From positions 1 to 64,000 of the IMG/VR virus record IMGVR_UViG_2974796443_000001: a stretch of 64,000 nucleotides of DNA; one strand, given 5' to 3'. This document shows positions 12,383 to 50,847 of this stretch, in pieces; the stretch's first letter is position 1, and each line of letters begins with the position of its first letter. The notes under the pieces were generated by a model. It had not been told where the DNA came from. It worked only from the letters and a program-made list of their open reading frames with translations, and did no database searches. The translations under genes and the position numbers were made by a program. The stretch comes from a virus. Its lineage: Duplodnaviria; Caudoviricetes.

Positions 12383-13129
12383 ATGGATTATAAGTACAAA
12401 ACCGCTGTCGGTATAGTCATAAATGACGACAACGAAATATTACTAGGAAGATGTGTAACTGAAGATGACCGTAATGGTATGTTATGTTTCCCTGGAGGTG
12501 GAATAGATAAGGGTGAGGATATATTCTCAGCTGCTATTCGAGAAGTTCAAGAAGAGACAAATATTTCCTGTCATGTTGACAAGATGGTGTTTGTCACTCA
12601 TAGTTCAAGACCTACGGTTGCTTTTGTAATGTTGAAACCTGAGGTTGGTTTCATGGACCCTAAGTTCAATGATGAATACGACCAGTCAAATCCAGGTGGA
12701 TGGTTTCCTCTTGATAATCTCCCAACTGCTGAAGTATTGAATAATAACTTAGATATTCTAAGGAACTTCAAACTAGTAACAGGTAAAGTTGAATATGCAA
12801 AAGATAATATAAACGAATCAAGTAATATGAAATCTGAAGATATAAAAAGTTTGATAGAGAGTTCTGACTCAGCTGAGGACATAGTTGAAGCTATTACTGA
12901 AGCTGCTAAGGGAATAAACACTGCCTATATAGTGGTCAATAAAGACGAGACTTTAGTTGCTAATGGACCTAAGGATACGACTAAATTGAAAAAAGGTCTT
13001 CTTCTAGACCCGTTTGTTATCGATTCCAAGGTTGGGGCTGACACTAGTATTAAAGCTTGGAAGTTAGATTCTAATGAATGGAAAGTGAAAGCAGTGAATT
13101 ATAAATTTGGATTATCTCAACGATACTAA
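12383..13129 (+). CDS. Nudix hydrolase fused to tagged C-terminal domain
   Basis: Nudix box GGGIDKGEDIFSAAIREVQEET; internal KSLIES...ITE tag from ATG 12827. Confidence 0.85.
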   Translation: MDYKYKTAVGIVINDDNEILLGRCVTEDDRNGMLCFPGGGIDKGEDIFSAAIREVQEETNISCHVDKMVFVTHSSRPTVAFVMLKPEVGFMDPKFNDEYDQSNPGGWFPLDNLPTAEVLNNNLDILRNFKLVTGKVEYAKDNINESSNMKSEDIKSLIESSDSAEDIVEAITEAAKGINTAYIVVNKDETLVANGPKDTTKLKKGLLLDPFVIDSKVGADTSIKAWKLDSNEWKVKAVNYKFGLSQRY

Positions 13130-13130
13130 T

Positions 13131-13565
13131 ATGAAAACAGGAAAAATTAAAACTCTTATTGAGTCCACGAAAGACGCTCCTGAAATACTAAAGGCTTTAA
13201 CTGAGTACGTTAAAGTTAAAGATGAGTTGACGAACAGTAAATTATATTTAGGTAATTCTCGAGAAGCAACTACATTCCTTAGACCTTACCTTAACTGGGC
13301 TCTAGTTGAACCTACAGAAGAACAAGACGATTCTTACTGGGATGAAGGAGTCCCAAGTAAATATAGCTCTAAGCTTAAAGGCACCGACTTTTTAGTTGGT
13401 CAAGGAGATAAAGGTGGAGGTTATCTTGCAGGCTCAACTGGAAAACTTAAGGGTATCGACTTTATTATAATGGGTTATGGTGATGGAGGACAAAGTGCTC
13501 TTTCATTCTTATATGTTAAACCTGGAAATGAAGCCAAGATGCTTAATGCTCTAGGAATAAAATAA
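13131..13565 (+). CDS. tagged putative internal head protein
   Basis: MKTGKIKTLIESTKDAPEILKALTE leader. Confidence 0.65.
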   Translation: MKTGKIKTLIESTKDAPEILKALTEYVKVKDELTNSKLYLGNSREATTFLRPYLNWALVEPTEEQDDSYWDEGVPSKYSSKLKGTDFLVGQGDKGGGYLAGSTGKLKGIDFIIMGYGDGGQSALSFLYVKPGNEAKMLNALGIK

Positions 13566-13570
13566 ATCTT

Positions 13571-14368
13571 ATGAATTTAAAAACGCTGGTCGAAACTGAT
13601 AAATCAGTCGACGATATTTTAGTAGACATCTTTGATTTCAATATCTTAGATGTCGATAGCGTATATAATTCTCTCTATCTTCAGCCTACCCTGAATCCTA
13701 GTATATGGGACGGTCTTTCAATGAGACCTGAAGTTAGGAAAAGATTACTAGCGATTGCTTATGATTTCTTTAATAGTCTTGGTTTGAATAAGCCTGATAC
13801 ACTGAAAGACATAACTCTTACAGGAAGTTCCTCTAACTACAACTGGTCAAGTTTCTCTGACATAGATTTACATCTACGCTTAGACTTTTCCCAAATCTCA
13901 GATGATACTGATTTTGTTAAAGAACTATTCCTAGGAAAGAAGACCATTTGGAATGCTGAACATAATATAAAGATATTTGACATACCTGTTGAAGTCTATA
14001 TTGAGAATATAGGAGACACTCACATTGCCTCAGGATTATTCTCAGTTCTAAATAACTCTTGGATAGTAACTCCAGTAAGGACTCAACTATCAGTCGATAA
14101 AGACGATGTCATCTCCAAGGTAGAGGGCTTCACCAGTCAGTTACCGTATCTTATTGAATTGTTCAACTCAGGTAGTTACCCCCGACTGATCGAGACGATA
14201 ACTAAGATAAAGGATAAGATAGCAACTCTTCGTCAGTCAGGCTTAATCAAAACAGGTGAATTCGGAGTAGAAAATCTTACCTTCAAAATACTTCGCCGAG
14301 GAAACTTCATATCCTCACTTAATGATCTTAGTACACGGGCGTTTGACCTGATGATGGGATTAGACTAA
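13571..14368 (+). CDS. Pol-beta superfamily nucleotidyltransferase with N-terminal tag
   Basis: TGSSSNYNWSSFSDIDLH and PVEVY motifs; leader MNLKTLVET. Confidence 0.8.
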   Translation: MNLKTLVETDKSVDDILVDIFDFNILDVDSVYNSLYLQPTLNPSIWDGLSMRPEVRKRLLAIAYDFFNSLGLNKPDTLKDITLTGSSSNYNWSSFSDIDLHLRLDFSQISDDTDFVKELFLGKKTIWNAEHNIKIFDIPVEVYIENIGDTHIASGLFSVLNNSWIVTPVRTQLSVDKDDVISKVEGFTSQLPYLIELFNSGSYPRLIETITKIKDKIATLRQSGLIKTGEFGVENLTFKILRRGNFISSLNDLSTRAFDLMMGLD

Positions 14369-14412
14369 GTCTTTCCTCCTACCTTTCCTCTTTTATTCAA
14401 AATTAACCCCTT

Positions 14413-14898
14413 ATGAAATTACGTCAAGAAGAAATTAAGCTGGATGAAGTATCTGCGATCTTTGAGAATTTCCTTAAAGAGATTAAGCAAGAGCGAGTTA
14501 GAGTTTCCATCAAACGAGTTGATGATCTAGAGAATAGCTCAGTTCGAGTCTTTATCCCTTACTCTGCGGGTAAAATAAATTTGGACTTCAGAGTAACTAA
14601 AGCTATGGATGTTTGTTATATCTATTTCAGCTTTATTCCTAGAACTAATGGTATTAAGTATACTAGCTCATTCGGAATGTTTCAAGATTTCGATGATCTG
14701 GAGTCTGCCTTATTCAATAAGTCAGTCAACATCTTACAGGAACTTAAAAAGCCTGAATCAACAGTTGATGACTATATCTCTAATAAAGTAGCCAAACGCT
14801 TTCTCCAAGATAATACTGAGATAACTAAAGTTGAAGACTCTACTTCAAAATTACTTAAGATACCTAAATGGGTAAGAACAATATTTTCAGCCGAGTAA
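14413..14898 (+). CDS. hypothetical protein
   Basis: 161-aa ORF. Confidence 0.65.
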   Translation: MKLRQEEIKLDEVSAIFENFLKEIKQERVRVSIKRVDDLENSSVRVFIPYSAGKINLDFRVTKAMDVCYIYFSFIPRTNGIKYTSSFGMFQDFDDLESALFNKSVNILQELKKPESTVDDYISNKVAKRFLQDNTEITKVEDSTSKLLKIPKWVRTIFSAE

Positions 14899-15977: not shown

Positions 15978-15978
15978 T

Positions 15979-16740: not shown

Positions 16741-16755
16741 TTTTAAACTAAATTT
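16741..16755 (+). promoter_or_regulatory. putative late promoter motif
   Basis: TTTTAAACTAAATTT, identical to 48459-48473. Confidence 0.55.
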
Positions 16756-16761
16756 GAACTG

Positions 16762-17271
16762 ATGAATCTAAAGTCACTTGTTGAATCTAATAAACCTATA
16801 TCCTCTATTATGGAAAGGGTCTATTATAGAATGCCCCCTCAGTATAAAGACAAGCCTGAGAACATGTATGACATAAAACCTGGAGGGTATTTGTACTTTG
16901 CAGACGATTCAGATAAAGACTTTAAATTTGAGGAGTACTTGATTATCCAATTATTCACTGACGAGAGAACTGACTATGTTATTATCTACGATGAGGATGA
17001 GGATAGAATTAAGTGTGTTACGTCAGATAACTACTACGAACATGGGATAGGGTATGCTGAGTCCTCTGAAAAGAATTTAGCTCTAGCTAGCCAAATTTGG
17101 AAAGACAATGCTTCTACTATTAACTTACTTAGAAGACACCCTAGCGCTTTTGCTTATGAGCGTGACTCTAGACCAGATAATTATGAATCTGAGATAGTCC
17201 TCGGAGTTGAGGATAGGGTGAATGATTTTGTAAACAAGTTAAAAATGGCTAAAGCAGCAGGTGTCTTATGA
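16762..17271 (+). CDS. tagged putative internal head protein
   Basis: MNLKSLVESNKPISSIME leader. Confidence 0.65.
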   Translation: MNLKSLVESNKPISSIMERVYYRMPPQYKDKPENMYDIKPGGYLYFADDSDKDFKFEEYLIIQLFTDERTDYVIIYDEDEDRIKCVTSDNYYEHGIGYAESSEKNLALASQIWKDNASTINLLRRHPSAFAYERDSRPDNYESEIVLGVEDRVNDFVNKLKMAKAAGVL

Positions 17272-17669
17272 AAGACTACTCTTCAATAAGTAATGCAGAG
17301 CCAAGAGAATGGAAAGATACCTTTGGACCTAAGGTATTTTCTATGTTAAAACAAATGTGGTCTACCGAACTTAAATTAATGTCTGATGAACAAGCGTCAG
17401 ACGAAATTGTAAACAGAATGAATAAATACACGAATACTCCGAGTAATTTGAAAAATTTAATCGAGTCTGACGCTTCAGAAGATGAAGTAGTTAAAGCGGT
17501 TACTGAGAAAGGTGGTGGGGGTAGAATTGACCCAATGAACATCACTGATGAAAACGAACTTATTAAAGCAGTTCAGAACTTAGCTAAGAAGTCAAAAACT
17601 TTCGCTTCTAAGTTCATGAAAGCAATGGAGCCTTACGGTAAAGCTGCTGGACAAGCTATTAGAAAATAG
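17268..17669 (+). CDS. protein with internal tag
   Basis: NLKNLIESDASEDEVVKAVTE. Confidence 0.65.
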   Translation: MKDYSSISNAEPREWKDTFGPKVFSMLKQMWSTELKLMSDEQASDEIVNRMNKYTNTPSNLKNLIESDASEDEVVKAVTEKGGGGRIDPMNITDENELIKAVQNLAKKSKTFASKFMKAMEPYGKAAGQAIRK

Positions 17670-17675: not shown

Positions 17676-17918
17676 ATGAAGCCAGAAGAAATTAAATCTC
17701 TAGTAGAGTCTGAGAACTCAGTTTCTACCATAGCCAGTAAGGTAATTAACCCTATCTCTGAATCAGCGATTAGTATTGACGATGAAGTTAAAGTTGTCGG
17801 TCCAGTAGAGGGCAAAGGTAAGAAAGGGATTGTTTTAGAAGTTATGGGGAGCTTTATTGTAGTTCAGATTAAAGGCAAGAAACATTCTTATCATGAAACA
17901 GATTTAAAAATACTATAA
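17676..17918 (+). CDS. tagged small KOW/SH3-like protein
   Basis: MKPEEIKSLVES leader; IDDEVKVVG..GKKGIVLEV. Confidence 0.65.
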   Translation: MKPEEIKSLVESENSVSTIASKVINPISESAISIDDEVKVVGPVEGKGKKGIVLEVMGSFIVVQIKGKKHSYHETDLKIL

Positions 17919-17920: not shown

Positions 17921-18193
17921 ATGAAGACAACTGAACTAAAATCTTTAATTGAGTCTGAGAGCTCAGTCGAATCAATAACTGAGATGATGTTAGGTATGAC
18001 GGGTGGAGAATCTAACTTCACTGAAGCCAAGGAAAGCTACCTTAATAAATACGGTGAGAAAGTTAGTGATGTATCCTCGGCTGCCATTCTAGAAAAACCA
18101 GAAGCAGAAAAACTTGCTAAGTCCTATAAGGGGAAGACTACTATAGTACCTGAGAAAAACGGTAAAAACTATTTAGTCTTGGTTTCTAGTTAG
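17921..18193 (+). CDS. tagged small protein
   Basis: MKTTELKSLIESESSVESITE leader. Confidence 0.65.
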   Translation: MKTTELKSLIESESSVESITEMMLGMTGGESNFTEAKESYLNKYGEKVSDVSSAAILEKPEAEKLAKSYKGKTTIVPEKNGKNYLVLVSS

Positions 18194-18270: not shown

Positions 18271-18645
18271 ATGGATGAGAATCTAAAGAAATTAGTATCC
18301 GATGTTAAACCACCCTTACATCTAGTCGAAGCAAAATCTGAGACGAATAAAGAGGGTGTATATTGCGAGTTTGTTAGCTTGCATGCCTTAACCAGACCTG
18401 CTCGTAGAGAGTTTCTACATAATAACTACATAGAAGCTCAAGCTATAATGGAGCTTGAAGGTAAGTCTTACTTGGTAATAAATCAAGAGACTAAAAAAGG
18501 TAAGCATAGATCAACCTCTAAATCTTCATATGCAATTGGAGATAAAACAGATCACGGAATAATAACCAGAATAGAGTTCAACCGAGTACCTCAACGTAAA
18601 GGCGTTAAGGACGTAATATTTGGTTTCCTCTATTTCATTAAATAA
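18271..18645 (+). CDS. hypothetical protein
   Basis: 124-aa ORF. Confidence 0.65.
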   Translation: MDENLKKLVSDVKPPLHLVEAKSETNKEGVYCEFVSLHALTRPARREFLHNNYIEAQAIMELEGKSYLVINQETKKGKHRSTSKSSYAIGDKTDHGIITRIEFNRVPQRKGVKDVIFGFLYFIK

Positions 18646-19001: not shown

Positions 19002-19432
19002 ATAAAATCACCCTTATTGTAAACCACTTAAATTTAATACTTCTAGGTAGTACTCCTAAGATAATCAACGATGGTCATGAAATGGAGGTATCAGGTGTAG
19101 TTAGACAACCTGACGGTACTTGGAACGCCTTAGTATTCCTTGATCCCTTAGCTGATCCTAAGATGATGCATCAAATTCCTATTACTGAAGAAATTAAGAT
19201 AGTAGCTAAAAGCCTTGGGAGAACTAAGACTGAGAAGATAATTAATGGATTAACTATAGCTGAAGAGCTGACTCAACCCTTTGATAGGAAGTCTCCTCAG
19301 TATAGCGAGATATTTGTTATGTTAGACTACAATCCTTTAGCCCTGCCGTTCTTCATGCTTAAGGTATTAATAGATCATAACTTCGATGTTCTACACCTAG
19401 ATAAGTATGGATTGCTTGTAGATGAAGAGTAG
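18995..19432 (+). CDS. hypothetical protein
   Basis: ATG 18995; C-terminal L...FDV..L...GL motif. Confidence 0.6.
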   Translation: MVDKITLIVNHLNLILLGSTPKIINDGHEMEVSGVVRQPDGTWNALVFLDPLADPKMMHQIPITEEIKIVAKSLGRTKTEKIINGLTIAEELTQPFDRKSPQYSEIFVMLDYNPLALPFFMLKVLIDHNFDVLHLDKYGLLVDEE

Positions 19433-22086: not shown

Positions 22087-22383
22087 ATGAAAGATAACGA
22101 AGTAAAAGCTTTGGTTGAGTCTGAGAAGACTACTGAAGAAATTGCGGCTGAAGTTACTGAGAGTATCCAGCCTAAGAAGCCTATGGCTGAAATGAACCTA
22201 GAAGACGTCAAAAAGAAGATGACGGAAGAGGGAGCTCCTGCAGATGAGCCGTACGAATTTAAAGAGGGTGATGCTTCCTTTAAATACGAAAACGATAAGA
22301 TGCAAGTTAAGACCGAAGAAGGATGGGCAGGATGCACATCTGTTAAGGAAGGACTTGACATGATTAAGGAGAAAAAGAAATAA
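22087..22383 (+). CDS. tagged small acidic protein
   Basis: MKDNEVKALVESEKTTEEIAAEVTE; own late-type motif at 22046 and terminator. Confidence 0.7.
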   Translation: MKDNEVKALVESEKTTEEIAAEVTESIQPKKPMAEMNLEDVKKKMTEEGAPADEPYEFKEGDASFKYENDKMQVKTEEGWAGCTSVKEGLDMIKEKKK

Positions 22384-26644: not shown

Positions 26645-27337
26645 ATGGTGAAATCCACAAAGTACTTAGTAATTGGTATTGTTGTACTCTTAGTCTTGTT
26701 AGCAGTTCTAGCAAGTAGATACTTCAATACAGTAAAACAACTTAAAAACTCTGAAACTAATCTAGAGCTAACTGAGCAAAAGATTATTAAAGAGAAAGAC
26801 AAGTTTGGAAATGAGATAGCTACTATTCAAAGTATGGTAGTTAGAAAGAATTCTGAAATACTTAAATTGAAGGATTCTATTAAAGGGATTAAGTCTAATA
26901 CAATTGTTAGGGTAGTTACTAAAACTGTTCGAGATACTATTGAAGTGGAAGCTGAGTCTCCACCCGACATAGTAGACAACAGGTTACTTCTCCCTTTCTC
27001 ATTTGGTTATTCTGGAGACTGGTTAAAGTTCAAAGGTAGTATCAATACAGATGGAATTACTCGATTAGTTGATTATGAAGACACCCATAAACTAAACCTA
27101 TATGTAGGTTCTACTACCAATAAATGGTATCAGATTTTCAGAAAGAAGAAATCCATTGTTAAACTTACTGATGAGAACCCGTTTAGTACTGTTACTGAGT
27201 TTGAATCAATAACAATAGAAGAAGATAGACCTAAGCGGTTTGGTATAGGAGTACATCTAGGTTACGGAGGTCAATCCCTCGATGCTCTAGGTCCGACCAT
27301 TTCTGCAGGTCTTAACTATAATCTAATAAGATTTTGA
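26645..27337 (+). CDS. TM/coiled-coil protein with C-terminal beta-hairpin (spanin candidate)
   Basis: N-terminal TM, coiled coil, KRFGIGVHLGYG..ISAGLNYNLIRF. Confidence 0.55.
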   Translation: MVKSTKYLVIGIVVLLVLLAVLASRYFNTVKQLKNSETNLELTEQKIIKEKDKFGNEIATIQSMVVRKNSEILKLKDSIKGIKSNTIVRVVTKTVRDTIEVEAESPPDIVDNRLLLPFSFGYSGDWLKFKGSINTDGITRLVDYEDTHKLNLYVGSTTNKWYQIFRKKKSIVKLTDENPFSTVTEFESITIEEDRPKRFGIGVHLGYGGQSLDALGPTISAGLNYNLIRF

Positions 27338-27897
27338 AATACTATGTTTACATTCTTTACTTAAATTCTGAACCTATTTATGTAGGTAAGGGTTCTAAAG
27401 ATAGGGTCTTCCTTTCTCAGAGGAAGCATAAAGCTGATAAATTTTCTATAGTATATAAATCTTATAATGAGCTAATGTGTCTTAGAGAAGAGACTAGATT
27501 AATTATAGAGATTAAGAGAATCCAAGAAGGAGGTACTCTTAGAAATATAGCAATCTGGGATACTTCTAATAAATTAACTGATGCCGAGTGTTCCTTAATA
27601 GGTAAAGAAAATTGGAAAGACCCTGTTTATAGAGCTTGGATGACTAGCAAGAGGAACTCTCCTAATTTTATCCAGAAGTCAACTGAGACTATAACTCGGC
27701 TTAATAATGATCCAGAGTTTAAATCTAAAAGATTGAAATCATTAAAATCTCGAACTAAACTTTCTAAAGATCAAATTGGGGATATTTATTTAAAACACAA
27801 GTCAGGGTATCTAGCTAAACAGTTAGCAACCGAATACAGAGTTCACCCTGATACTATAAGTAACGCTATTAATAATTACAATATCTTAGAGTTTTAG
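27334..27897 (+). CDS. GIY-YIG family endonuclease (free-standing, homing-like)
   Basis: YYVYIL..PIYVGKG..R, E, LRN; C-terminal HTH. Confidence 0.75.
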   Translation: MKYYVYILYLNSEPIYVGKGSKDRVFLSQRKHKADKFSIVYKSYNELMCLREETRLIIEIKRIQEGGTLRNIAIWDTSNKLTDAECSLIGKENWKDPVYRAWMTSKRNSPNFIQKSTETITRLNNDPEFKSKRLKSLKSRTKLSKDQIGDIYLKHKSGYLAKQLATEYRVHPDTISNAINNYNILEF

Positions 27898-32871: not shown

Positions 32872-35792
32872 TGGCGTTAACAAATTTAGGTAAAACAGGT
32901 TTAAATTTAAGGGAGCAAGACTTACTAGATAGAATACTAGTAGGTTCGACCGACCCTAGTGGAGTTGTTTCTTCTAATATAGGAGACTTATACTTAGTAC
33001 CTTCTATTCCTGACCTATTTATTAATATGGATGGAATAACAACTTGGAAGAATATTTCTTCTTTAGTTGAGTTAGAGGTTGATGATTCTACCTACAATAC
33101 ATTACAGAAAATAGTAGATAAGTTAAAAGCTTCTGAATTAGCAATATCTGATATACAAGTTTCAGACATAGCTGACTTACAAGACTACTTAGATAATCTA
33201 AGTGTAGCCGACATACAGAATTTACAACCTGCACTAGACAATAAGGTAGATAAGGTAGCGGGGAAAGGTCTAAGTACTAATGACTTCACTGTAGCTTATC
33301 GTAATGAAGTAGACTCCAATACAAGTCATCGAAGTAGAACAGATAACCCTCACGGTGTTTCTAAGTCCCAAGTAGGGCTAGGTAATGTTAATAACACTTC
33401 TGATCTTAGTAAACCTATCAGTACCTTACAACAAGCTGCTTTTACCGCTAAGGTAGATAAAGTGACAGGTAAGGAATTATCTGATAATAATTACACTGAC
33501 GAGGATAAGTCTACTGTTATTAATGCGTCTTCTCATATGGATGCTGAGAATAATCCTCACGGGGTCACTGATACTCAATTAGGATTAGGTACAGGTCACT
33601 TTAGACCGCCTGTTTCTGACTTGACTGAACTAGCTGCTTTGTTAGAGGAGGAACTACTTAATAATGAAAGGCGTTATGTAACATCTGAAAATATTGATTA
33701 CTTCTTCTCAACAACCGCGACCTCAGGTGACGTATCTCCTGACGATCAGACCTTAGGGACAGGATTCTGGACTAAAGCGACTGCTGGAGTTGAAGATGTA
33801 TATACTAAAGCTGAGTCCGACGCTAAGTATGCAGAGATAGGAGATTCTTTTACTAAATCTGAGTCTGATGCTAAGTACTCTCTTACTTCACATACTCACC
33901 TCATTGCTGATATAACTGACTTCACTGATAACTCTACTGACTGGGACACTGCTTTCGGTTGGGGTAATCATAATTCTCAAGGTTATGTAGTTGTAGGAGT
34001 GGCTTCAACTGAAAATAATTTAGTACTATGGGATGCCTCAGGTAAAATAACCGATGCAGTAGGTCTTAGTTGGTCTGCAAGTTCACTTTCTGTTACAGGA
34101 GCTATCTCAGCTACTGGTGCAGGTGTATTTGGGAATGTTCAAGTTTTAGACGTTCCGTATGACGAGTCATCTTGGAATGGAGCTTTAACTGTTCCTACTA
34201 TGAATGCTATTCGAGATTGGATAGTAGGTTTTTCTGTTTCCGATATTAATGCAACAGGAACTGCCTCAGCTTCTACTTACTTAAGAGGAGATGGGGTATG
34301 GGCTACTGTAACCGCTTCTGCTGCTTGGGGAGCTATCTCAGGTACTTTAACTGATCAAACGGACTTAGTCGCTAAATTCGGGGAGTACTTACCATTATCA
34401 GGTGGTACAGTAACAGGTAATCTATTCGCACCCTCTTTTAGGGTACAAGGCACAGGCACTGGTATATCAAATACAGGAGTCCTAGCTGTCTATGAATCAG
34501 ATGGTACAACTAGACAAGGTTATATAGGGTTTGGTAGTGGTTCAAGTTCAGATTTTATCTGGTACAATGACGTAGGAACAAACTATTTAAGACTGTTAGA
34601 TGACGGTGGTGCAAATGGTTTATTCTATAACTATTCTGGAGGTAGTGGTGCTGTATACCATACAGGTAATAGTAGTGGTTTAGTAAATACAGGTTCAGCA
34701 ACTCAAACTAAAACTGGGGGATTAGCAGCACAGACATTAACAACTACAAACTCAGGGGATGGAGCAACCTTACTCACATTCTCTACCGAACGTCCTTGGA
34801 GGTTCGTCCAAATTGGTACTGGTTCAGGAGCAGTGCTAGGGTTGCAGGATTTAAATGGTTCTAAGAGCTTTAATATAACAGACCCATCTGGAAATAGAAA
34901 TCACTCTTTTGCATCATCAGGTAATTATGACCTAACTGGTGATATAAAAATGAGTAAAGAGAAGCCGATTTTGACTCTACATAGTACTAAGAATGGAAAC
35001 TGGGTAGAGGGAGAGACATTGTCGGAAATTATTTTCTACGGAGCTGACGGTAGTAGTAATGGTGCAAATGACAGAGGAGCTATAAAATTAAGCTCGTATG
35101 ACGTATTTGGAATAAGGTTTAATATGGATTTTTATACATCCAGTAATGCAGACCCTGAGTTGGCTATGCGTATTGGTTATGATAAAAACGTGACAATAGT
35201 AGGCGATCTCACAGTAAGTGGTGATAATATTATCATGGATGATGTCAATAATAGAGTAAAATATGCTGTATGGAATACCTCTGGTACGTTCGGTATTGGG
35301 ATGGGTGCGTCATATACCTACGGAGGTTTAAATGATTTTGCTATGACCTTCCAAATGAACAGTTCATCGACTCGTGGATGGTGGTGGGGAACTGATTCCC
35401 ACTCTAACGCACAAGGGTCGATGTCATTAACTACAACTGGAGTGTTAACAGTTGCTAGTTCGGTAACGGCTACTAACTTTATCTTGTCCTCTGATAAGAG
35501 ACTAAAAAAGAATATTAAAACCCTTAGAGGAGATGACTTAGATTTAAGATGGGTACAGTTTAATAGAATAGATGATGGGTCGTTTCAATTAGGTCTTATA
35601 GCGCAAGAGGTTGAAAAAACTAATCCTGAATTTGTCCTAACAGATAAAACAGGATTTAAATCAGTTAAGTATATAGATGTTCTTATTGCTAAAATGGCAG
35701 AGAAGGATAGAAAAGATAGGGATAAGGACGCTAAGATAAAGTCTTTAGAAACTAGAGTATCTAAATTAGAGAAATTCTTAAATCTTAATTAA
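32871..35792 (+). CDS. tail fibre protein 2 with C-terminal S74 intramolecular chaperone
   Basis: SSDKRLKKNI...GLIAQEVE..P; NPHGV repeats; YLPLSGGT. Confidence 0.9.
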   Translation: MALTNLGKTGLNLREQDLLDRILVGSTDPSGVVSSNIGDLYLVPSIPDLFINMDGITTWKNISSLVELEVDDSTYNTLQKIVDKLKASELAISDIQVSDIADLQDYLDNLSVADIQNLQPALDNKVDKVAGKGLSTNDFTVAYRNEVDSNTSHRSRTDNPHGVSKSQVGLGNVNNTSDLSKPISTLQQAAFTAKVDKVTGKELSDNNYTDEDKSTVINASSHMDAENNPHGVTDTQLGLGTGHFRPPVSDLTELAALLEEELLNNERRYVTSENIDYFFSTTATSGDVSPDDQTLGTGFWTKATAGVEDVYTKAESDAKYAEIGDSFTKSESDAKYSLTSHTHLIADITDFTDNSTDWDTAFGWGNHNSQGYVVVGVASTENNLVLWDASGKITDAVGLSWSASSLSVTGAISATGAGVFGNVQVLDVPYDESSWNGALTVPTMNAIRDWIVGFSVSDINATGTASASTYLRGDGVWATVTASAAWGAISGTLTDQTDLVAKFGEYLPLSGGTVTGNLFAPSFRVQGTGTGISNTGVLAVYESDGTTRQGYIGFGSGSSSDFIWYNDVGTNYLRLLDDGGANGLFYNYSGGSGAVYHTGNSSGLVNTGSATQTKTGGLAAQTLTTTNSGDGATLLTFSTERPWRFVQIGTGSGAVLGLQDLNGSKSFNITDPSGNRNHSFASSGNYDLTGDIKMSKEKPILTLHSTKNGNWVEGETLSEIIFYGADGSSNGANDRGAIKLSSYDVFGIRFNMDFYTSSNADPELAMRIGYDKNVTIVGDLTVSGDNIIMDDVNNRVKYAVWNTSGTFGIGMGASYTYGGLNDFAMTFQMNSSSTRGWWWGTDSHSNAQGSMSLTTTGVLTVASSVTATNFILSSDKRLKKNIKTLRGDDLDLRWVQFNRIDDGSFQLGLIAQEVEKTNPEFVLTDKTGFKSVKYIDVLIAKMAEKDRKDRDKDAKIKSLETRVSKLEKFLNLN

Positions 35793-41822: not shown

Positions 41823-43415
41823 ATGGCAAAAGGCGCAGGATTCGGTCTTCCTGGAATTTTCCAAAATCTTAAACCAAAGAGGGTTGATCCTCTTGTTGAT
41901 GATTCTGAAAATGACGGACTAGGCGGAGGTAATTTGGAACAAGAGCTATTAGGCTCCATTGTACCTACCCACAAGCGTTCAATAATTTATATGGACGCTG
42001 ACTTTGTAGATGCTTCAGATGAAGACGTTAGTAGCTTCCTGAGTGACATCTCTATTGATGCTACCCAGTACTCAGCTACAACTAACTCTTGTATATGGCC
42101 AACCTCGAATGATAAAGACCTAGAAATAATTATAAGTGACTTACTTAAGAATCTTAGAATTGAATATAGAGCTCAATCTATTGTTAGGGATATTGCTAAA
42201 TACGGAGATAAGTTCGGCAGACTTATTATTGATCCTAGCAAAGGGGTTATAGGTATTAAATTAAATATCCATCCTAAGGATATGGTTCGCTTAGAATACG
42301 GTGGACAATTAATTGGATTCTTCAAAGTTGGTGATGAAGCAGCTCTTGAGAAATATGAAGTAGTTCATTGGATGAACCCTTCTGAATTTGTCGAGGATGA
42401 TATTCTTAAAACCAACCCAATTATTAAAGATAAATATCTTGTTGATAGAGACCCGTCTTATGGGTTCTCCTCTATCTTCAGAGTTATCAGTATTTCAAAG
42501 AGACTAAAATATACTCTTGATGCATTAACTATGGGTAGGATGGCTAAGTCCAAATCTTTCCGTACTCACTATGTAGAGGTAGGTAAAGCCACTGCTGGAG
42601 AGAGAGTTAAGCTAATGAGAACTTATCGTAAGGTATGGAATAGGACTTCAGGGGGTTCTTACGGTGGAGGGGCTAAGGATGCCTTTTCTCGTGAGGGTGA
42701 CTTCTCCTATGAAGTAGACAAGATGTTTCCCGTATCTGACGGTAAGGGAACTTCTTCTATCTCTAATGTTGGAGGTGACTTAGATATTACAGGAATAGCT
42801 GATATAGAATACTACGATAAAAAGAAACAACAACTTTTAAGTCAGCCTGAGGGGTTCAATACTGCAACCCGACTTAAGGAGGATACTAAGTATGCTAGAA
42901 TAGTATCTTCATATCAACGTTCATTCTTAGAGGGTGTTTATCAGTTAATAGATGTTCACTTGGATATCTTAGGAATATATGAGGAAAAGCGAAAGTACGT
43001 ACTTAACATTGTAGAAGTAGATACTTTTACTCAAGTTGAGAGAAACGATGTGTTATCTTCTTCTATCGAGTTTATTGAGAGAGTTATGCAACTATCTAAT
43101 ATAGAAGGAGTTAATCTTAATGCTAATTACTTGTTTAAATATCTTATTACTAATTATGTTAAATTCCCTGGATTGAACTTTGATGCTTTAATAACTGAAG
43201 CACCTGAAGGAGAACCTTTAGATAAGAATGAGGAGGAAGCGTTAGATGAAGCTATCAATACAGTAGAAGCTCTTATAGAATCTAGTCCAACAATACGAGA
43301 ACGGTTAAGTAAATTAAATGAAACAACATCTGCCAAGCTTTCAACTCTAAGTGATTTTAATCCTAAGAGTCATGTTAAGTCCTCAGATAAAAAATTAACA
43401 GACCATGAGAAGTGA
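41823..43415 (+). CDS. portal protein (T4 gp20-like)
   Basis: Position and size; RDIAKYGDKF, VVHW, YGFS, DIEYY motifs. Confidence 0.85.
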   Translation: MAKGAGFGLPGIFQNLKPKRVDPLVDDSENDGLGGGNLEQELLGSIVPTHKRSIIYMDADFVDASDEDVSSFLSDISIDATQYSATTNSCIWPTSNDKDLEIIISDLLKNLRIEYRAQSIVRDIAKYGDKFGRLIIDPSKGVIGIKLNIHPKDMVRLEYGGQLIGFFKVGDEAALEKYEVVHWMNPSEFVEDDILKTNPIIKDKYLVDRDPSYGFSSIFRVISISKRLKYTLDALTMGRMAKSKSFRTHYVEVGKATAGERVKLMRTYRKVWNRTSGGSYGGGAKDAFSREGDFSYEVDKMFPVSDGKGTSSISNVGGDLDITGIADIEYYDKKKQQLLSQPEGFNTATRLKEDTKYARIVSSYQRSFLEGVYQLIDVHLDILGIYEEKRKYVLNIVEVDTFTQVERNDVLSSSIEFIERVMQLSNIEGVNLNANYLFKYLITNYVKFPGLNFDALITEAPEGEPLDKNEEEALDEAINTVEALIESSPTIRERLSKLNETTSAKLSTLSDFNPKSHVKSSDKKLTDHEK

Positions 43416-44145
43416 GTTAATGGATAGATTCTCTGAGATTATCCCCATTGGGACTAATAAGAAATTAGAGTATAGTTTCAAAGAGTCTATCAATATTTAT
43501 AGTATACTAGAGAGCAACAAGGGGCTTGATCCTATTATGGAAAGTCTTGCTAAGATTTATAATGAGACTTTTACCCATGCTCAACATTCTGATATCGCTA
43601 TCATCAATGAGAGTATTACAGTTTTCTTAGAATCCAACTACGAACAGTTAACTGAGGTTACCTTCAAGAAGAAGAAACGTAAGAAGAGACCTAACTCAGC
43701 TTTATCTAGAGTTGCTAAACAAAGGTGGCGAAAGAATAAGACTAGTTACAAGAAAGGTCTGAAGAAGTTTCACAAATCATCTAAGGGTAAGACCTATCAT
43801 AAAGCTCTTAGTCGATTCAACAAAAGAAATAGTAATAAAAAGGAGGGGGTTAATGATATAACTTTCAATGATATTACTGAGCTGATAATTGCTATATCCT
43901 CAGCGTTCACTAATGTATTATTATATATTAATGAGCAAACAGAAGCTAGCGAGGATTTTGACGCTATTGAATTAATAGACGTATTACGTGAAATTCAAAA
44001 CATGTCAATTGAAGAATTGTTAACCGAGTACAATTCTGAATCCAAAGAATACCTTGACTCGGTGGTTAGTGAGGTAACTGATTTATTTTTAGATATAGTT
44101 ACCGAGTATGAATTTTACCCTTATGAAGATAACGATGAAGAATAA
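43405..44145 (+). CDS. prohead core protein (acidic ends, very basic centre)
   Basis: Lies between portal and protease; KKKKRKKR tract; many (I/L/M)xE sites. Confidence 0.55.
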   Translation: MRSELMDRFSEIIPIGTNKKLEYSFKESINIYSILESNKGLDPIMESLAKIYNETFTHAQHSDIAIINESITVFLESNYEQLTEVTFKKKKRKKRPNSALSRVAKQRWRKNKTSYKKGLKKFHKSSKGKTYHKALSRFNKRNSNKKEGVNDITFNDITELIIAISSAFTNVLLYINEQTEASEDFDAIELIDVLREIQNMSIEELLTEYNSESKEYLDSVVSEVTDLFLDIVTEYEFYPYEDNDEE

Positions 44146-44146
44146 C

Positions 44147-45445
44147 ATGTTAAAAGATTCCTTAGGTGTTAGTATGAAAGTACTATCTGAAGGAACTAGT
44201 ACAGATGTGCTTCAACCTGTTTATCTCCAGTGCATTGCGATTACCCCAGATATACCTAATAACAACGGGCGGATTTACGAGGAGGAACTAGTAGATAAGA
44301 TTTTAGCTACAAGAATGTCTCCTGATCAACTTAAGTCCAACCCTTTGTTTATGGAAATAGTTCATCCTGCTGAAGATCAGACAGGAGAAATTAATTCTGA
44401 AAGGATCGCTGCTCAGATTATTAAAGCATGGAAAGCTCCTAGTAATGAGCTTGTTGTTTTAATTGAGTTACTGCCTGAGATAGGTAATGTTGGAGCGAAA
44501 GTTTTGTATAACCTAGTAGTTAAAAGGAACGCTGTTCCTGGAATTAGCATTAGAGGATTTGGAAAATACCGTAGAGGGAATACTGTAGACACTGCGAGCT
44601 ACAAATTCGTTACTATTGATATTACGTTCAATCCGTCTAATATAGCTAGCTTTGCCCAGAAGCTTAATAGTACTGAGGCATTGGACATCTCTGAATACAT
44701 AGGAGAAAGCACTGAGGAAGAGTTAATGTCCTTGAGTGAATCATTTAAAGCGGGAGACAAATCCCTAGTAAAACTAATTGAAAATAAAAACGCAAACGTT
44801 AAAAACAGTAACAAGATGGAAGACCCTAATAAAGAATTACTAGAAAAGGTTGCTGACCTTTCTGGTAAGTTAGCTAAGTCGGAAAGTGAGAACGAGCAAT
44901 TGAAGAAAGAATCTTCAGATGTTAAGGAAGAACTTGCCGCTAAAACAGAATCATTAAAAACCGTTGAAGGTCATTACGCTAAGTGTTTAGCTATTACCGA
45001 ATCAGTTATTGATGAATTAAAGATTTCAGACCAATCTCGTGTTGACCTAGAAGTGCAGGTAGAGAGTTTGAATGATACCAATAAAGTTTTGACTGAAAGT
45101 CTTAAAACAACTGAAGCGCATTACAATAAGTCAGTGGCGGTTATCTCTACCATTAACGAAAGTGTGCAGCATAATAAAGTTGTTGAGATGGTTGAATCTA
45201 AACTTGGTGAGGGTGCTTATGAAAAGTACTCTAACCTTTTTGAAAACACTTCATATCAAAAAGCTGAGACCCTAGTGACTGCTCTTTCTGAGAACAGTAA
45301 GCCTACAGTAACAAAGCCTTTCGTTGAGCAATTCCGTAATGGAGCTGCTGCTGAAGGAGCTGATGCTGCTGAGGGTTTAGAGAACTTGACTGAGAGCGAG
45401 AAAGTTGATTATGAAAGACGTAAATTCCTTTACGCTCAAGACTAA
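44147..45445 (+). CDS. prohead protease (gp21-like) fused to scaffold
   Basis: NNNGRIY, EIVHP, GISIRG, TIDITFNPS; C-terminal coiled coil. Confidence 0.88.
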   Translation: MLKDSLGVSMKVLSEGTSTDVLQPVYLQCIAITPDIPNNNGRIYEEELVDKILATRMSPDQLKSNPLFMEIVHPAEDQTGEINSERIAAQIIKAWKAPSNELVVLIELLPEIGNVGAKVLYNLVVKRNAVPGISIRGFGKYRRGNTVDTASYKFVTIDITFNPSNIASFAQKLNSTEALDISEYIGESTEEELMSLSESFKAGDKSLVKLIENKNANVKNSNKMEDPNKELLEKVADLSGKLAKSESENEQLKKESSDVKEELAAKTESLKTVEGHYAKCLAITESVIDELKISDQSRVDLEVQVESLNDTNKVLTESLKTTEAHYNKSVAVISTINESVQHNKVVEMVESKLGEGAYEKYSNLFENTSYQKAETLVTALSENSKPTVTKPFVEQFRNGAAAEGADAAEGLENLTESEKVDYERRKFLYAQD

Positions 45446-45485: not shown

Positions 45486-46910
45486 ATGAAATACGAAAAT
45501 AGAATGACGGAAGTTCTTACCGAAGCTCAAAAGCACACTGCTGGGCTTAGAGGTAAGTACGCCAAGTACATGAATCCATTGACTGAGTCTTTGGCTTCTA
45601 AGAAACGTAGGCTTGATCCTATGTTAGAGGCAACTATGTTGCAATTGTTAAATAAGCTTGATGATGATTTAGCGATCATGGAAGCTACTAATTCCGGTAT
45701 GGTTGGTTCTTTTATCCAGCATGGTTATGATTTGATCATGGCTACTTACCCGAATTTAGTTACAGCTCAGATTGCTTCTATCCAGCCTTTGTTTTATAAG
45801 ACTGGTGAAATCTGGTTCTTATCTGCAGTTTCAGATAAAGCTAAAGGTACTGAAGTAGCGGGAACTAAGTTCTTCGATGCTAAGCAAGGTACTAGAATCA
45901 ATAAGCTTTACTCTTCTGAGTATATCGATGCTGTTGATGATGGTGATGCAACAGTTACGACTTTTAACTTTGCTTATGGTGCTGAGCTTCGCACAAATGT
46001 TGGTGATGACTTCGTTGTTGTTACTGATGGTGTTGAAACTTTTACAGTTGACCCTTCTGATAACACTAAGCTTATTGGTTCTGAGGGTGGTGCTGGTACT
46101 ATCAATGCTGCTACTGGTGCAGTTGCTGTTACTTTCGATACTGCTCCTGCAGTTGGGACTGGTAATGTTGTTGCAACAGCGAAAGTTTATTTTGAAAAAG
46201 AGCCTGATCAAATCGGTCAAGTTCGTATTGACTTGGTTTCTGAGCCTATTTCTGCTCAAGAGCATAAGTTAATTACTCAATATACATTGAATGCTGAATT
46301 CGACCTAAACCGTCAATTCAAAATGTCATTGTCTGATGAGTTGATCAAAATGACTTCTGCTCAAATTAGAGCTGAGATCGATCAATTATGTTTAGATCAA
46401 ATTAAGGCAGCTGCTAAAGGTAATGGTACTACTTCTTGGAGTGCTACTGTTCCTTCAGGAGTATCTGAAACTGAACACTTCAGAAGTATCTTGACTGCTT
46501 TCCAAAGACAGTCTAACCAAATTTATAAGAACACTCACATGGCTGAGGGTACTTTTATCATAACTGGTTTAGATGCTGCTACTATTATAGAGACGTTGCC
46601 ATCTTACCGAAGAATTGCTAAGTCAAGTGATTCAGGTAAGTCTGGACCTTACGTTGCTGGTGAAGTTGGGGATTACTTACATGTTAAGAATCCTTACTAC
46701 CTTGATACTGAATGGGTAATGGGAAGTAAAGGGAACTCTGTTTTCTCTACTGGTTTTATCTTAGCTCCATATTCTGGACTTATGGTAACTCCTCCTGCTA
46801 CTGATGCTAATGACCCGTTCACTATTTCTAGAGGACTTTGGTTACAAGCTGGTAGAAAGGTTGTTAATAAGTTCTTCTACGCTTACGGTGTAGTTACGAA
46901 CTTTAACTAA
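45486..46910 (+). CDS. major capsid protein (T4 gp23-like)
   Basis: PNLV..QIASIQP..TG.I; IRAEIDQ; GFILAPY; IME/AT propeptide junction at residue 66. Confidence 0.93.
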   Translation: MKYENRMTEVLTEAQKHTAGLRGKYAKYMNPLTESLASKKRRLDPMLEATMLQLLNKLDDDLAIMEATNSGMVGSFIQHGYDLIMATYPNLVTAQIASIQPLFYKTGEIWFLSAVSDKAKGTEVAGTKFFDAKQGTRINKLYSSEYIDAVDDGDATVTTFNFAYGAELRTNVGDDFVVVTDGVETFTVDPSDNTKLIGSEGGAGTINAATGAVAVTFDTAPAVGTGNVVATAKVYFEKEPDQIGQVRIDLVSEPISAQEHKLITQYTLNAEFDLNRQFKMSLSDELIKMTSAQIRAEIDQLCLDQIKAAAKGNGTTSWSATVPSGVSETEHFRSILTAFQRQSNQIYKNTHMAEGTFIITGLDAATIIETLPSYRRIAKSSDSGKSGPYVAGEVGDYLHVKNPYYLDTEWVMGSKGNSVFSTGFILAPYSGLMVTPPATDANDPFTISRGLWLQAGRKVVNKFFYAYGVVTNFN

Positions 46911-46968: not shown

Positions 46969-47580
46969 ATGGCAAATTATAAATTAACATCAAAAGTGAA
47001 TCACCCGCTATCTATTAGTGCGGCTCACGCTAGCCTTAGGCTAAGCTTAGATCCATTAGGGACTAAGACAAAAGAATTAACCAGTGAAGCGGTTTCCTAC
47101 CTTAAGAAGTACTTTCCAGGTATTGAGGTTACTAAAGTAGCTGACACTCCTGTTAAGACAAAAACTCCAGCTAAAGTAGTTCCTATTTCTAATACTGTTA
47201 AAGTAACTAAAGAGGGTGGTGATGTCGATCCTAATGCAGGTGATGTCGATCCTAATGCAGGTGATGTCGATCCTAATGCAGGTGATGTCGATCCTAATGC
47301 AGGTGATGTCGATCCTAATGCAGGTGATGTCGATCCTAATGCAGGTGATGTCGATCCTAATGCAGGTGATGTCGATCCTAATGCTGAGGAAGAGGAAGCT
47401 CCTATTGAATTCTCATTAGAGCAAGTAGGCGGTAAGTCAACTGAGTTACTAGCTCCTGATGCTATTAAAGCCTTAGATACAATTGCAGAGAATGATATTA
47501 CATTAATTGATGTATTTGTTGAAGGAGATAAAAGAGTTACAATTACTGAAAAAGTTCAATCTTTGAAAGCTACTGAATAA
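46969..47580 (+). CDS. head-associated protein with GDVDPNA repeats
   Basis: Follows the major capsid gene; internal heptapeptide repeat. Confidence 0.65.
47218..47385 (+). repeat. tandem repeat, 8 x 21 bp
   Basis: GGTGATGTCGATCCTAATGCA x7 plus one copy ending GCT. Confidence 0.98.
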
Positions 47581-48458: not shown

Positions 48459-48479
48459 TTTTAAACTAAATTTTGAATT

Positions 48480-48980
48480 ATGGCAATGGAAGGAGCCAAA
48501 TACGGCAAAAAGAGAGAGGGTGAGGTTAAGCCCCAATTAGCAAAGATTTTTGAAAAGGAGGGATTCGTATTTCACGAACTACCTGATACTTTCAGAGCAA
48601 GGGGCGTAAGGATGCCCGCACAACCAAGTGACTTCATTGTTTTCTTTGAAGCTATGAGTGGATTCTATTTAGAGTTCAAAGTTGCATCTGACGAAAACCG
48701 TTGGACTAACAATGGCTTACAGAAGAAACAATGGGAAACTATTTGTGATTGTAAAAGAACAGGAGCTATGTACTTCGTTTTAATCGAATGTACTCAGAAT
48801 AAATGTTGGTACCTAACTCCAGGAAACTTTCTTCATGACTTTGAGGAAGAGAATAAAACTAAGTCTATTAACTGGAAACACTTTAAAGAGTTCCAAATTG
48901 ACAGTTTAACTCAGATTCCAGACAAAGTGTTTGAAACGGTTTCCGCAAACGAAGCTAATACATCTTCTAAAGGTGTTTAA
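48480..48980 (+). CDS. PD-(D/E)xK nuclease, RecU/Holliday-junction resolvase-like
   Basis: GK..E, LPD, PSDF, YLEFK, Q motifs. Confidence 0.75.
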   Translation: MAMEGAKYGKKREGEVKPQLAKIFEKEGFVFHELPDTFRARGVRMPAQPSDFIVFFEAMSGFYLEFKVASDENRWTNNGLQKKQWETICDCKRTGAMYFVLIECTQNKCWYLTPGNFLHDFEEENKTKSINWKHFKEFQIDSLTQIPDKVFETVSANEANTSSKGV

Positions 48981-49045
48981 AAGCGTTTTAAGCAATGTTA
49001 AATCCTCTTTGGGCGAAAGGTGCCCCAAGACCTAATAAATTCGTA
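48970..49045. repeat. dispersed intergenic element
   Basis: GTTTTAAGCAATGTT arm plus TTTGGGCGAAAGGTG core (49008). Confidence 0.8.
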
Positions 49046-49046
49046 A

Positions 49047-49325
49047 ATGAAACTTCAAAACATGATAGAATCCGTAATGACGGAAGCTGATATTATTGCC
49101 TCAGTAAAGCGAGGAAATCTTGGGGATCAACTCCGAGGACATCTTAAGAAGATGTACGATATAGATAGCTCTGATCTTACAGCAGGTGACCGTAATGGTA
49201 AAAAGGTACTTATCTATAGTGCAGTTAATCCTAAACAATCTACCCAAGATTTTTTAGCAGATGATTTTCTGTCTAACTATTTAATTATAGAACCTGGAAT
49301 TCCAACTACATTTTTAGCTGAGTAA
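49047..49325 (+). CDS. small protein with short tag
   Basis: MKLQNMIESVMTE. Confidence 0.6.
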   Translation: MKLQNMIESVMTEADIIASVKRGNLGDQLRGHLKKMYDIDSSDLTAGDRNGKKVLIYSAVNPKQSTQDFLADDFLSNYLIIEPGIPTTFLAE

Positions 49326-49762
49326 TGTTACATCCATCAGACAAAGAAATAAATTATTTAATAAGCCGAGAAGAGGAGAGGTTTAATTTAATCAATCCTC
49401 CTATCTCTTATCAAGCATGGGAGAATTCAACTGTCCTAGCAGATGAAGATGATTTCTTTGGTGATGATAAAAATCGTAAGTTTGCTAAATCTTTCGAGGT
49501 ACCTGCTGATTACGATTTTAACGAAAAGATAAAGAAATGGGAAAACGGGGTTTCTCAGATAACTAACTTGATGAGAGTCAAGATTCCTATTTCCTTACTT
49601 GCTAAAAATAATGTTGCCCCTAAGAAAGGTGATCAGATGATATTTGACGGTGAGGTATATGATGTTCTTTCAGTTAAGAAAACTGACATCATTCAAGGAA
49701 CCTCAAATAGATTTCTGTTTTATACAATAACAATAGATACTGAACAAACATCCCAAGACTAA
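49325..49762 (+). CDS. head closure / stopper protein
   Basis: Position; DDFFGD, PKKGDQMIFDGEVYDV. Confidence 0.6.
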   Translation: MLHPSDKEINYLISREEERFNLINPPISYQAWENSTVLADEDDFFGDDKNRKFAKSFEVPADYDFNEKIKKWENGVSQITNLMRVKIPISLLAKNNVAPKKGDQMIFDGEVYDVLSVKKTDIIQGTSNRFLFYTITIDTEQTSQD

Positions 49763-50073
49763 TGACCCAACTTAAAAAATTAATAGAGTCATCTAAGACT
49801 ACTCAGGAAATTCTAGATGTTCTAACTGAATCTAATACTAACTTAAATAGTTTAGTTAAGCAACTTAAAGCATCACCTAAAGTATCCGACGTCAAAGTGG
49901 GAGGTAAACCAACCTATAGAGAAATCTGGTTTACAATAGGTAAGGAAGACTGGACTCTTGCTATAGACACTCAGTTAAGTAATGACGCTGAACTTCAACT
50001 CTACTCGGAAGACGGATTTGGAGCTGACGACGCTTTGAAACATCTTAATAAATTAGGAGTAAAAATAAAATAA
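49762..50073 (+). CDS. tagged small protein
   Basis: MTQLKKLIESSKTTQEILDVLTE. Confidence 0.7.
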   Translation: MTQLKKLIESSKTTQEILDVLTESNTNLNSLVKQLKASPKVSDVKVGGKPTYREIWFTIGKEDWTLAIDTQLSNDAELQLYSEDGFGADDALKHLNKLGVKIK

Positions 50074-50077
50074 AATA

Positions 50078-50578
50078 ATGTTAGCTGTACGTCTCCCTAA
50101 AAATCTTACTAAGAAAGTTCGAGCTCTCAAGAAGCTAGCTAATCTTAATGAGGAATTTGTAGAGGAAAATATTAAAGCGTTTGCTGAGATGTTTTATAAT
50201 AGACTAATGCTTCATATTGAAAACCAAGATTTAGGGTGGAGACCTTTATCTACTGATTACTTAGAATGGAAACGTTCTGAAGGTAAAAGCACTAAGATTT
50301 GGGTTAAGGATGGAGTGCTTCAGAAAGAAATAAAACTAATGCGAATTACGGATGAGAATCTATGGTTCGTTGGTATTGATGGAACTGCAACTTACCCCGA
50401 TTCGGATATACCCGTTTCTATGATAGCTGCGGTTATGGAATATGGCTCTCCTAGCAAAGGTATTCCAGCTAGACCTTTATTTAGACCTAGTCGACAAGAA
50501 GTTATTAAGGAGATTAAAGTGATTATCGAAAGAAACAATCAACGTTTCCTTGCGAAACTGAAAAAAGAAATTGGATAA
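50078..50578 (+). CDS. tail completion / morphogenesis protein
   Basis: WRPLS..Y..WK, MEYG...IPARPLFRP. Confidence 0.75.
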   Translation: MLAVRLPKNLTKKVRALKKLANLNEEFVEENIKAFAEMFYNRLMLHIENQDLGWRPLSTDYLEWKRSEGKSTKIWVKDGVLQKEIKLMRITDENLWFVGIDGTATYPDSDIPVSMIAAVMEYGSPSKGIPARPLFRPSRQEVIKEIKVIIERNNQRFLAKLKKEIG

Positions 50579-50847
50579 TGAAAGTAATAGAAGGTAATAA
50601 TAATTATAGCTTATACTACACTAACGAGATGGGTTCTGTTATTAAGGTGAAAGAGCTTTATACTAACAGAATTATAATCGACTTAGATGGTAGGGAGAAA
50701 ATAATTAACCATAATGTATTTAATCGTATTCTTGAGGAATATGGTTATACGGCAGTTAGTTCTAAGAACAATAAGAAAAACTTGGGAGTTCTAGTTGAAT
50801 CCAAGTTGAACCCTAAAGATATCGTTGAGTGTCTAAGAGAGCAATAA
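50578..50847 (+). CDS. small protein with C-terminal tag-like motif
   Basis: NLGVLVESKLNPKDIVECLRE. Confidence 0.6.
   Translation: MKVIEGNNNYSLYYTNEMGSVIKVKELYTNRIIIDLDGREKIINHNVFNRILEEYGYTAVSSKNNKKNLGVLVESKLNPKDIVECLREQ

Follow-up and report, generated by a model that had tools for sequence, protein, structure and literature searches.

The window analyzed here is a stretch of 64,000 nucleotides, the first 64 kb of the 124,695-bp genome of a marine tailed phage (IMG/VR record IMGVR_UViG_2974796443_000001) that is 98% identical to Colly_1, a myovirus of the family Molycolviridae that infects Maribacter forsetii, and that carries nearly all of its genes on the + strand. Ten proteins encoded in the window share a peptide tag of about 25 residues, which we consider here as a candidate signal for loading proteins into the phage head.

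The original prediction, made from the sequence of the window, had listed 12 copies of the tag. A hidden Markov model (HMM) built from the 10 clear copies in the window and run over the genome in six frames places these 10 exactly where they had been described. The remaining two do not stand as full tags: the C-terminus of the portal protein scores about 0 bits and has the string LIES alone in common with the tag, and the open reading frame (ORF) at 49047 scores only marginally. The copies in the window, with this possible short variant given last, are as follows.

12827-12904, + strand: tag in the Nudix ORF 12383-13129 (residues 149-174), HMM 37 bits
13131-13208, + strand: N-terminal tag of the 144-residue protein 13131-13565, HMM 37.6 bits
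13571-13639, + strand: N-terminal tag of the 265-residue nucleotidyltransferase-like protein 13571-14368, HMM 36.7 bits
16762-16830, + strand: N-terminal tag of the 169-residue protein 16762-17271, HMM 38.9 bits
17433-17510, + strand: internal tag, located at residues 56-81 in the 133-residue protein 17268-17669 ahead of a GGGG linker, HMM 36.6 bits
17676-17753, + strand: N-terminal tag of the 80-residue protein 17676-17918, HMM 36.5 bits
17921-17998, + strand: N-terminal tag of the 90-residue protein 17921-18193, HMM 35.9 bits
22087-22164, + strand: N-terminal tag of the 98-residue protein 22087-22383, HMM 36.1 bits
49762-49833, + strand: N-terminal tag of the 103-residue protein 49762-50073, among neck genes, HMM 33-36 bits
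50767-50844, + strand: tag at the C-terminus of the 89-residue protein 50578-50847, the gene for which keeps its place in the neck region, HMM 34-36 bits
49047-49094, + strand: possible short tag variant MKLQNMIESVMTEA in the 92-residue protein 49047-49325, HMM only 6.5-8.3 bits

Outside the window, the same HMM detected five independent copies, at genome positions 97898, 107604, 108009, 118268 and 118554 (14.6-27.3 bits), all on the + strand and in real ORFs; the next six-frame match scores 8.7 bits. The expected enrichment over shuffled proteomes was borne out: the top score in 100 residue-shuffled proteomes was 11.8 bits, and none reached 14.6. The genome thus encodes at least 15 tagged proteins, in which the tag is N-terminal (12 of the 15), internal (two) or C-terminal (one). 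With the tag masked, these 15 proteins show no pairwise BLASTP similarity (all E > 0.1), in agreement with the earlier statement that the attached parts are mutually unrelated.

Conservation and predicted fold of the tag

The 10 tags of the window align without gaps to the consensus x5-[ILV]-K-x-L-[IV]-E-[ST]-x6-[IV]-[VLIM]-x2-[ILV]-T-E. Across the 15 copies, L9, [IV]10, E11 and S12 are invariant or nearly so. In the wider alignment of 22 tags from three lineages, which was used both for conservation and for structure prediction, E11 never varies, and conservation reaches 90% or more at S12 and I19. The tag is conserved at the protein level because third codon positions are near background: pairwise identity between copies at the first, second and third codon positions is 0.49, 0.66 and 0.34, respectively, against a background of ~ 0.29 (0.57, 0.89 and 0.38 for the conserved columns), and Ser and Leu codons vary freely between copies.

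AlphaFold2, run on the 22 aligned tags, predicts a helix-loop-helix (helix 3-10, loop 11-15, helix 16-28; mean pLDDT 86). In this model, the L-[IV]-E-S site would be exposed at the end of helix 1, because the loop begins at residue 11, directly after that helix. A second site of the [ILV]-x-E type is found at residues 19-25 in most copies. We considered, and rejected, the helix-extension-helix DNA-binding motif of the SAP and HeH families: there was no match to Pfam SAP, HeH or Rho_N up to E 0.1, and most of the tags, with net charges from -6 to +2, are acidic.

Among the individual carriers, the Nudix ORF consists of a Nudix domain (PF00293) at residues 5-121, the tag, and a C-terminal part of 74 residues; a single-sequence fold of this fusion was unusable (pLDDT 35). 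The same ORF also matches PHROG 15528, annotated as "portal protein" (profile positions 523-691, E 9.6e-5), and therefore some phage portals may carry a Nudix domain, which would place a Nudix enzyme inside a capsid. The 16762-17271 gene is the first of a four-gene tagged operon; the Atlas model of its product (residues 30-166) bears a weak likeness to WYL ligand-sensing domains (TM 0.40-0.46), which is no more than a lead. The short form at 49047 resembles the N-terminus MELQKWIESPLTEA at genome position 97416, and the two proteins, 49047-49325 and genome 97416-97901 (L001 1417-1902), have the N-terminal pattern M-x-LQ-x-x-IES-x-x-TEA in common. In the latter protein, there is a SWIM-like Cys/His pattern, along with a weak match (E 1.8e-5) to a PHROG annotated as "tail protein".

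Distribution among relatives

A query of IMG/VR with the single capsid protein gave no matches; a query with the capsid alignment (21 homologues, 42-50% identity) did yield loci. In metagenomic contigs with about 45% capsid identity, the synteny of the head, neck and tail genes is kept, and the tag is found on other small ORFs. The tagged genes lie inside the head-neck-tail module, at sites that differ among the relatives. In two relatives, L007 and L008, there are five clear tags, of which two lie between the genes for sheath and tube and three lie beyond the tube gene; L007 has two further tag-like stretches below the profile, in a 163-residue ORF at 19420 (recognized by eye) and in a 308-residue ORF at 18491 (4.3 bits). 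In another relative, L005, a tagged ORF occupies the position of 49762 and has a different cargo. The orthologue of 50578 in L005 has its tag at the corresponding position and extends about 70 residues past it, and in L007 the tag of this orthologue is degenerate.

The tag profile, searched against 1.84 billion representative proteins, gave 18 matches at E <= 0.001, most of them the seed proteins; the four non-seed matches that we read were two eukaryote-like repeats, one Colly_1 protein and one new metagenomic protein. A tblastn search with one tag against 50,697 phage records found Colly_1 only, and a scan of IMG/VR with a degenerate DNA pattern for IKSL[IV]ES..I returned 81 loci with no true tag (best score 13.7 bits), all of which are chance matches or HK97-type capsid N-termini. 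Within the detection power of the profile search, the tag is specific to this phage clade. Such restriction fits a tag partner that is encoded by the phage itself.

A promoter-like motif upstream of tagged and structural genes

The motif TTTTAA[ATG][ATC][CT]AAA is strand-specific, with 14 occurrences on the + strand against two on the - strand, and most of them precede an ATG by 21-38 nt.

Window 12361, 16741, 19446, 30270, 36287, 41108, 41802, 48459 and 51799, + strand: motif occurrences
Genome 64971, 84145, 97395, 107584 and 107989, + strand: motif occurrences
12361-12376, + strand: promoter-like motif TTTTAAATTAAATTTA, 22 nt before the operon with the Nudix tag
16741-16756, + strand: promoter-like motif TTTTAAACTAAATTTG, 22 nt before the ATG of the 16762 operon (position weight matrix, 26.4 bits)

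The tagged clusters had been described as following a late-type motif at 12361, 16741 and 22046, and the motif does stand at these sites, the first two being exact and the third, which precedes 22087, having one mismatch; another weaker form precedes 118268. The motif heads tagged units at 12361, 16741, 107584 and 107989, and at 97395 it heads the short-variant unit that runs on into the tagged gene 97898. It also heads the lysis cassette (36287), gene 41142 (41108), and the genes for the portal (41802), 48480 in the neck region (48459) and the sheath (51799). Four of the 11 motif-headed genes are tagged (P = 0.005), and the internal and C-terminal copies of the tag have no promoter motif. In relatives, a diverged motif, CTTTTATTTTAAA, precedes the portal, protease and sheath genes and one tagged ORF. 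Judging from the sequence context, the motif may be a late promoter of this phage family.

Turnover of the tagged cargo

Comparison with untagged homologues indicates that the tag is an add-on to free-standing protein families. The cargo of the 13571 protein (residues 36-250) matches phrog_36119, the match starting after the tag; it has 461 homologues at E <= 1e-8 in a phage nucleotidyltransferase family, with NTP_transf_2-like features in Atlas, and the tag is absent from the best 119 of these 461. The cargo of 97898 matches the 84-position phrog_33398 from residue 25 on, and this family, too, occurs without the tag. The possibility that the nucleotidyltransferase homologues of other phages carry an N-terminus similar to the capsid-targeting sequence (CTS) of phage T4 was not supported: [LI]xE was present in only 9 of 22 readable N-termini, many of which were 7-10 residues long.

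The genome differs from that of Colly_1 by 12 non-homologous blocks, three of which begin inside a tag (P = 3e-4). At 12859, the sequence matches that of Colly_1 fully (100% identity) through MKSEDIKSLIE and is unrelated to it beyond, and homology returns at about 13140, inside the 13131 tag, which forms the right edge of the swapped Nudix-side cassette. At 107644, an extra cassette lies between two tags in the present genome, where Colly_1 has one chimeric gene; and at 118590, the cargo of 118554 has been replaced. The portability of the tag that had been proposed is thus supported on two counts, the untagged occurrence of the cargo families elsewhere and the exchange of cargo at the tag between sister phages. 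The relatives L007 and L008, which form an independent lineage, are collinear and thus uninformative about cargo swapping. The other nine blocks have no link to a tag.

Genome 1073-1448, 27323-27872, 33606-34241, 35139-35502 and 103061-103325: non-homologous blocks
Genome 107236-107440, 112097-112265, 117397-117822 and 120259-120684: non-homologous blocks

Breakpoints of three swaps or indels within tag-coding DNA, and a direct repeat of about 65 bp at 107604 and 108009 that comprises the motif and the 5' half of the tag, are what would be expected if the repeat were mainly a DNA-level device, that is, a promoter and leader cassette that serves as a recombination anchor and encodes a functionless peptide. 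However, a purely DNA-level role is unlikely because of the codon positions: third positions are near background and second positions reach 0.66-0.89, with Ser and Leu codons differing freely among the copies. Furthermore, the internal and C-terminal copies lack the promoter motif, and the tag is kept as a protein in relatives with 45% capsid identity. We therefore regard this explanation as very improbable.

The head module and its predicted cut sites

The head module spans 39-47 kb of the window and encodes, in addition to the large terminase, the following proteins.

41823-43415, + strand: T4-type portal protein (PF07230, E 4.9e-16)
43405-44145, + strand: candidate prohead core protein of 246 residues, in the position of T4 gp67/gp68 (synteny with relatives; cut sites)
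44108-45445, + strand: gp21-type prohead protease fused to a coiled-coil scaffold (PF03420, E 1.2e-5; T4 gp21 structure 5JBL, E 2.7e-5)
45486-46910, + strand: gp23-type major capsid protein (PF07068, E 2.6e-32)

The presence of a gp21-like protease, which the original prediction had noted, is supported by both the Pfam and the structure match, the former being just below the curated cut-off (25.3 bits vs 27), and the Colly_1 counterpart is annotated as scaffold and protease. From its sequence, this protein is presumed to be the enzyme that cuts the tags. Its protease domain (residues ~ 30-190) is joined in one ORF to a long coiled-coil scaffold, an arrangement like that of the herpesvirus protease-scaffold. 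A word-based search for scaffold homologues gave only the query protein.

The scaffold and the capsid propeptide had also been described as rich in cut sites, and the counts agree. Per 100 residues, the proteome as a whole has 0.43 matches to [LIVM]xE[SAG], against 2.0 for the protease-scaffold (nine sites) and 6.2 for the tags, and a ranking of the proteome by the density of these sites puts the tagged proteins and the scaffold first. The sites of the capsid, portal and core proteins are concentrated near the termini. Four of the five sites of the capsid protein are in the first 66 residues, the presumed propeptide; all three [LIVM]xE[SA] sites of the portal are in its last 75 residues, including LIES at residue 484, which is also found in the portal tail of L007; and the core candidate has all three of its [LIVM]xES sites in the first 70 residues. 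In the 21 capsid homologues, the propeptide contains P31-L-x-E34-[SAG] and [ILVM]-x-E66-[AS]-T68, with P31, E34, E66 and T68 invariant. To judge by these patterns, the capsid propeptide, the scaffold and the tags follow one cut-site rule.

The core candidate, encoded between the portal and protease genes and conserved in relatives, has acidic ends and a very basic center (residues ~ 88-150). Roles as a core protein or as an internal DNA-binding protein are conceivable, and it is also a candidate receptor for the acidic tags.

Two neighboring genes merit mention. Directly after the capsid gene, ORF 46969-47580 contains eight tandem GDVDPNA heptads and may encode a spacer or decoration protein; the repeat is also read by a shadow ORF at 47216-47419. 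Gene 48480-48980 of the head-neck module, located behind a promoter-like motif, encodes a RecU-type Holliday-junction resolvase (phrog_843, E 3.8e-13) and recalls T4 endonuclease VII, which acts during packaging.

Comparison with known loading systems

Short portable peptides that bind the inside of an HK97-fold shell or a scaffold domain are familiar from the cargo-loading peptides of encapsulins and from the C-terminal capsid-targeting tail of the HK97 protease, and such peptides work at the N- or the C-terminus of their cargo. They have no sequence relation to the tag described here; encapsulin peptides are not removed by a protease, and their cargo is not delivered to another cell.

Phage T4 offers a parallel in several respects. 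Its CTS, MKTYQEFIAE (PMC8442874), is a short leader common to unrelated, fast-evolving accessory proteins, with an MK start and an L/I-x-E end, the type of site after which gp21 cuts (PMC9026906). The first 11 residues of the tag (MK..IK.L[IV]E) agree with the CTS in length, the MK start and the LxE end; they are too short for a statistical test, and for this reason we describe the tag as working like the CTS, not as its homologue. The phage studied here also encodes counterparts of the T4 protease (gp21 type), portal (gp20 type) and capsid protein (gp23 type). The internal proteins of T-even phages are diverse, with the CTS as their sole common part (PMC3012670; PMC9026906), which the turnover of cargo at the tag resembles. 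In contrast to T4, there are at least 15 carriers rather than about four, the charge of the cargo is not basic throughout, protease and scaffold form one fused protein, and the host belongs to Bacteroidota.

In the giant phages phiKZ, 201phi2-1 and SPN3US, many head-internal proteins are likewise cut after Glu by a gp21 homologue (PMC5694885). Their propeptides contain several cut sites, and the first 15 residues are identical in the paralogues gp53 and gp54; however, these propeptides are at least 100 residues long, are common to paralogues only rather than forming one portable tag, and are cut at A/S/G-x-E (PMC5694885). Together with T4 Alt, which is processed at both ends (PMC9026906), the multi-site propeptides of giant phages provide precedents for the varied positions of the tag and for its double site. 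In phage P1, an N-terminal stretch of about 30 residues of DarB suffices to carry a reporter into the capsid, and the DarB cargo acts against host restriction, but no role of cleavage is described for this signal, and the head is of another type (PMC9024508).

Possible function of the tag

Taking these lines of evidence together, we lean toward the reading that the tag is a prohead-targeting propeptide that would act like the T4 CTS, although longer and usable at several positions, and that would be removed by the head protease. The tagged genes would be expressed together with the structural genes. The helix-loop-helix would bind a component inside the assembling prohead, for example the scaffold, capsid propeptide or core protein, and thereby bring the attached protein in. 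The gp21-type protease would then cut L-[IV]-E|S, where helix 1 ends, behind its invariant Glu11 and would usually make a second cut at [ILV]-x-E near residue 21-25, freeing the cargo. The cargo, namely the Nudix hydrolase, the nucleotidyltransferase and a dozen small proteins, would stay in the head and would probably be delivered with the DNA. Binding, cleavage, packaging and injection are all inferred from sequence. The evidence that does not hinge on site counts within the tags consists of the capsid propeptide and scaffold sites, the motif upstream of tagged and structural genes, the confinement of the tag to one clade and the exchange of cargo.

Several observations weigh against this proposal. 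Enrichment of sites in the tags is partly circular because the site belongs to the tag consensus, [LIVM]-x-E being short and acidic helices being rich in Glu. The second cut site is absent at residues 23-25 in five of the 15 copies, and the scaffold VES is not kept in all relatives. The scaffold, core and portal proteins, considered as true carriers of the tag, were rejected with profile scores of at most 3 bits. Most tagged genes lie among genes of nucleotide metabolism and genes of unknown function, not among structural genes, and the parts that follow the tag have isoelectric points of 4.5-9.9, so that the cargo is not uniformly basic, unlike the internal proteins of T4. With about 25 residues, a predicted helix-loop-helix and two cut sites, the tag also differs from the T4 CTS, which has 10 residues and one site and is strictly N-terminal, whereas two internal copies and one C-terminal copy are found here. 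The "late" status of the promoter-like motif is deduced only from the kinds of genes that it heads, and the paper describing phages Molly and Colly reports no virion proteome. Finally, 25 conserved residues and two internal copies would suit a small folded binding module of any purpose.

The last point leads to an alternative that we consider rather unlikely, namely, that the tag is a docking or oligomerization module for a partner outside the prohead, such as a host hub, a phage chaperone or an assembly factor of the tail or baseplate, with LxE a by-product of an acidic amphipathic helix. Conservation over 25 residues and a confident helix-loop-helix exceed the needs of a cleavage signal, and occurrence at N-terminal, internal and C-terminal positions is as expected of an independent binding domain; the mixed charge of the cargo and, in some relatives, the location of tagged genes between the sheath and tube genes also accord with docking. 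However, the invariant residue is exactly the Glu of L-x-E-S, the type of site conserved in the capsid propeptide, and the restriction of the tag to this phage clade speaks against a conserved host hub. In addition, the promoter-like motif is common to head, tail and lysis genes, and takeover proteins made so late could act early only if packaged.

The same cut-site evidence would fit a removable inhibitory or sorting propeptide, cleaved by the prohead protease or by another Glu-specific protease, that governs how active or long-lived the attached proteins are within the infected cell, with no delivery into the next host involved; the Nudix hydrolase and the nucleotidyltransferase, for example, could stay inactive until processed. 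This seems improbable to us. In T4, gp21-type proteases are active only inside assembled proheads (PMC9026906), and therefore cleavage would already imply encapsidation; moreover, most of the cargo consists of tiny proteins with no obvious need for a zymogen.

Among these possibilities, prohead targeting followed by removal of the tag is the reading that we carry forward. The broader version of it, in which one position-independent tag loads at least 15 proteins, whether N-terminal, internal in a polyprotein-like arrangement or C-terminal, and in which the tag DNA doubles as a recombination joint for new cargo, is possible but doubtful.

Implications

If the tag indeed targets proteins to the prohead, the DNA of this phage would be delivered together with about a dozen proteins of unknown function as well as a nucleotidyltransferase and a Nudix hydrolase, a far larger and more varied set than that of T4. 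A simple sequence rule would then be available for spotting injected proteins in phages of marine Bacteroidota, the genes of which are almost all unannotated, and the tag could serve as a tool for packaging foreign proteins and delivering them via phages into Flavobacteriia. The injected proteins would likely be counter-defense or takeover factors. The exchange of cargo at the tag between sister phages shows how such an injected set could evolve, and if the position-independent system is real, the set would amount to a rapidly exchangeable arsenal.

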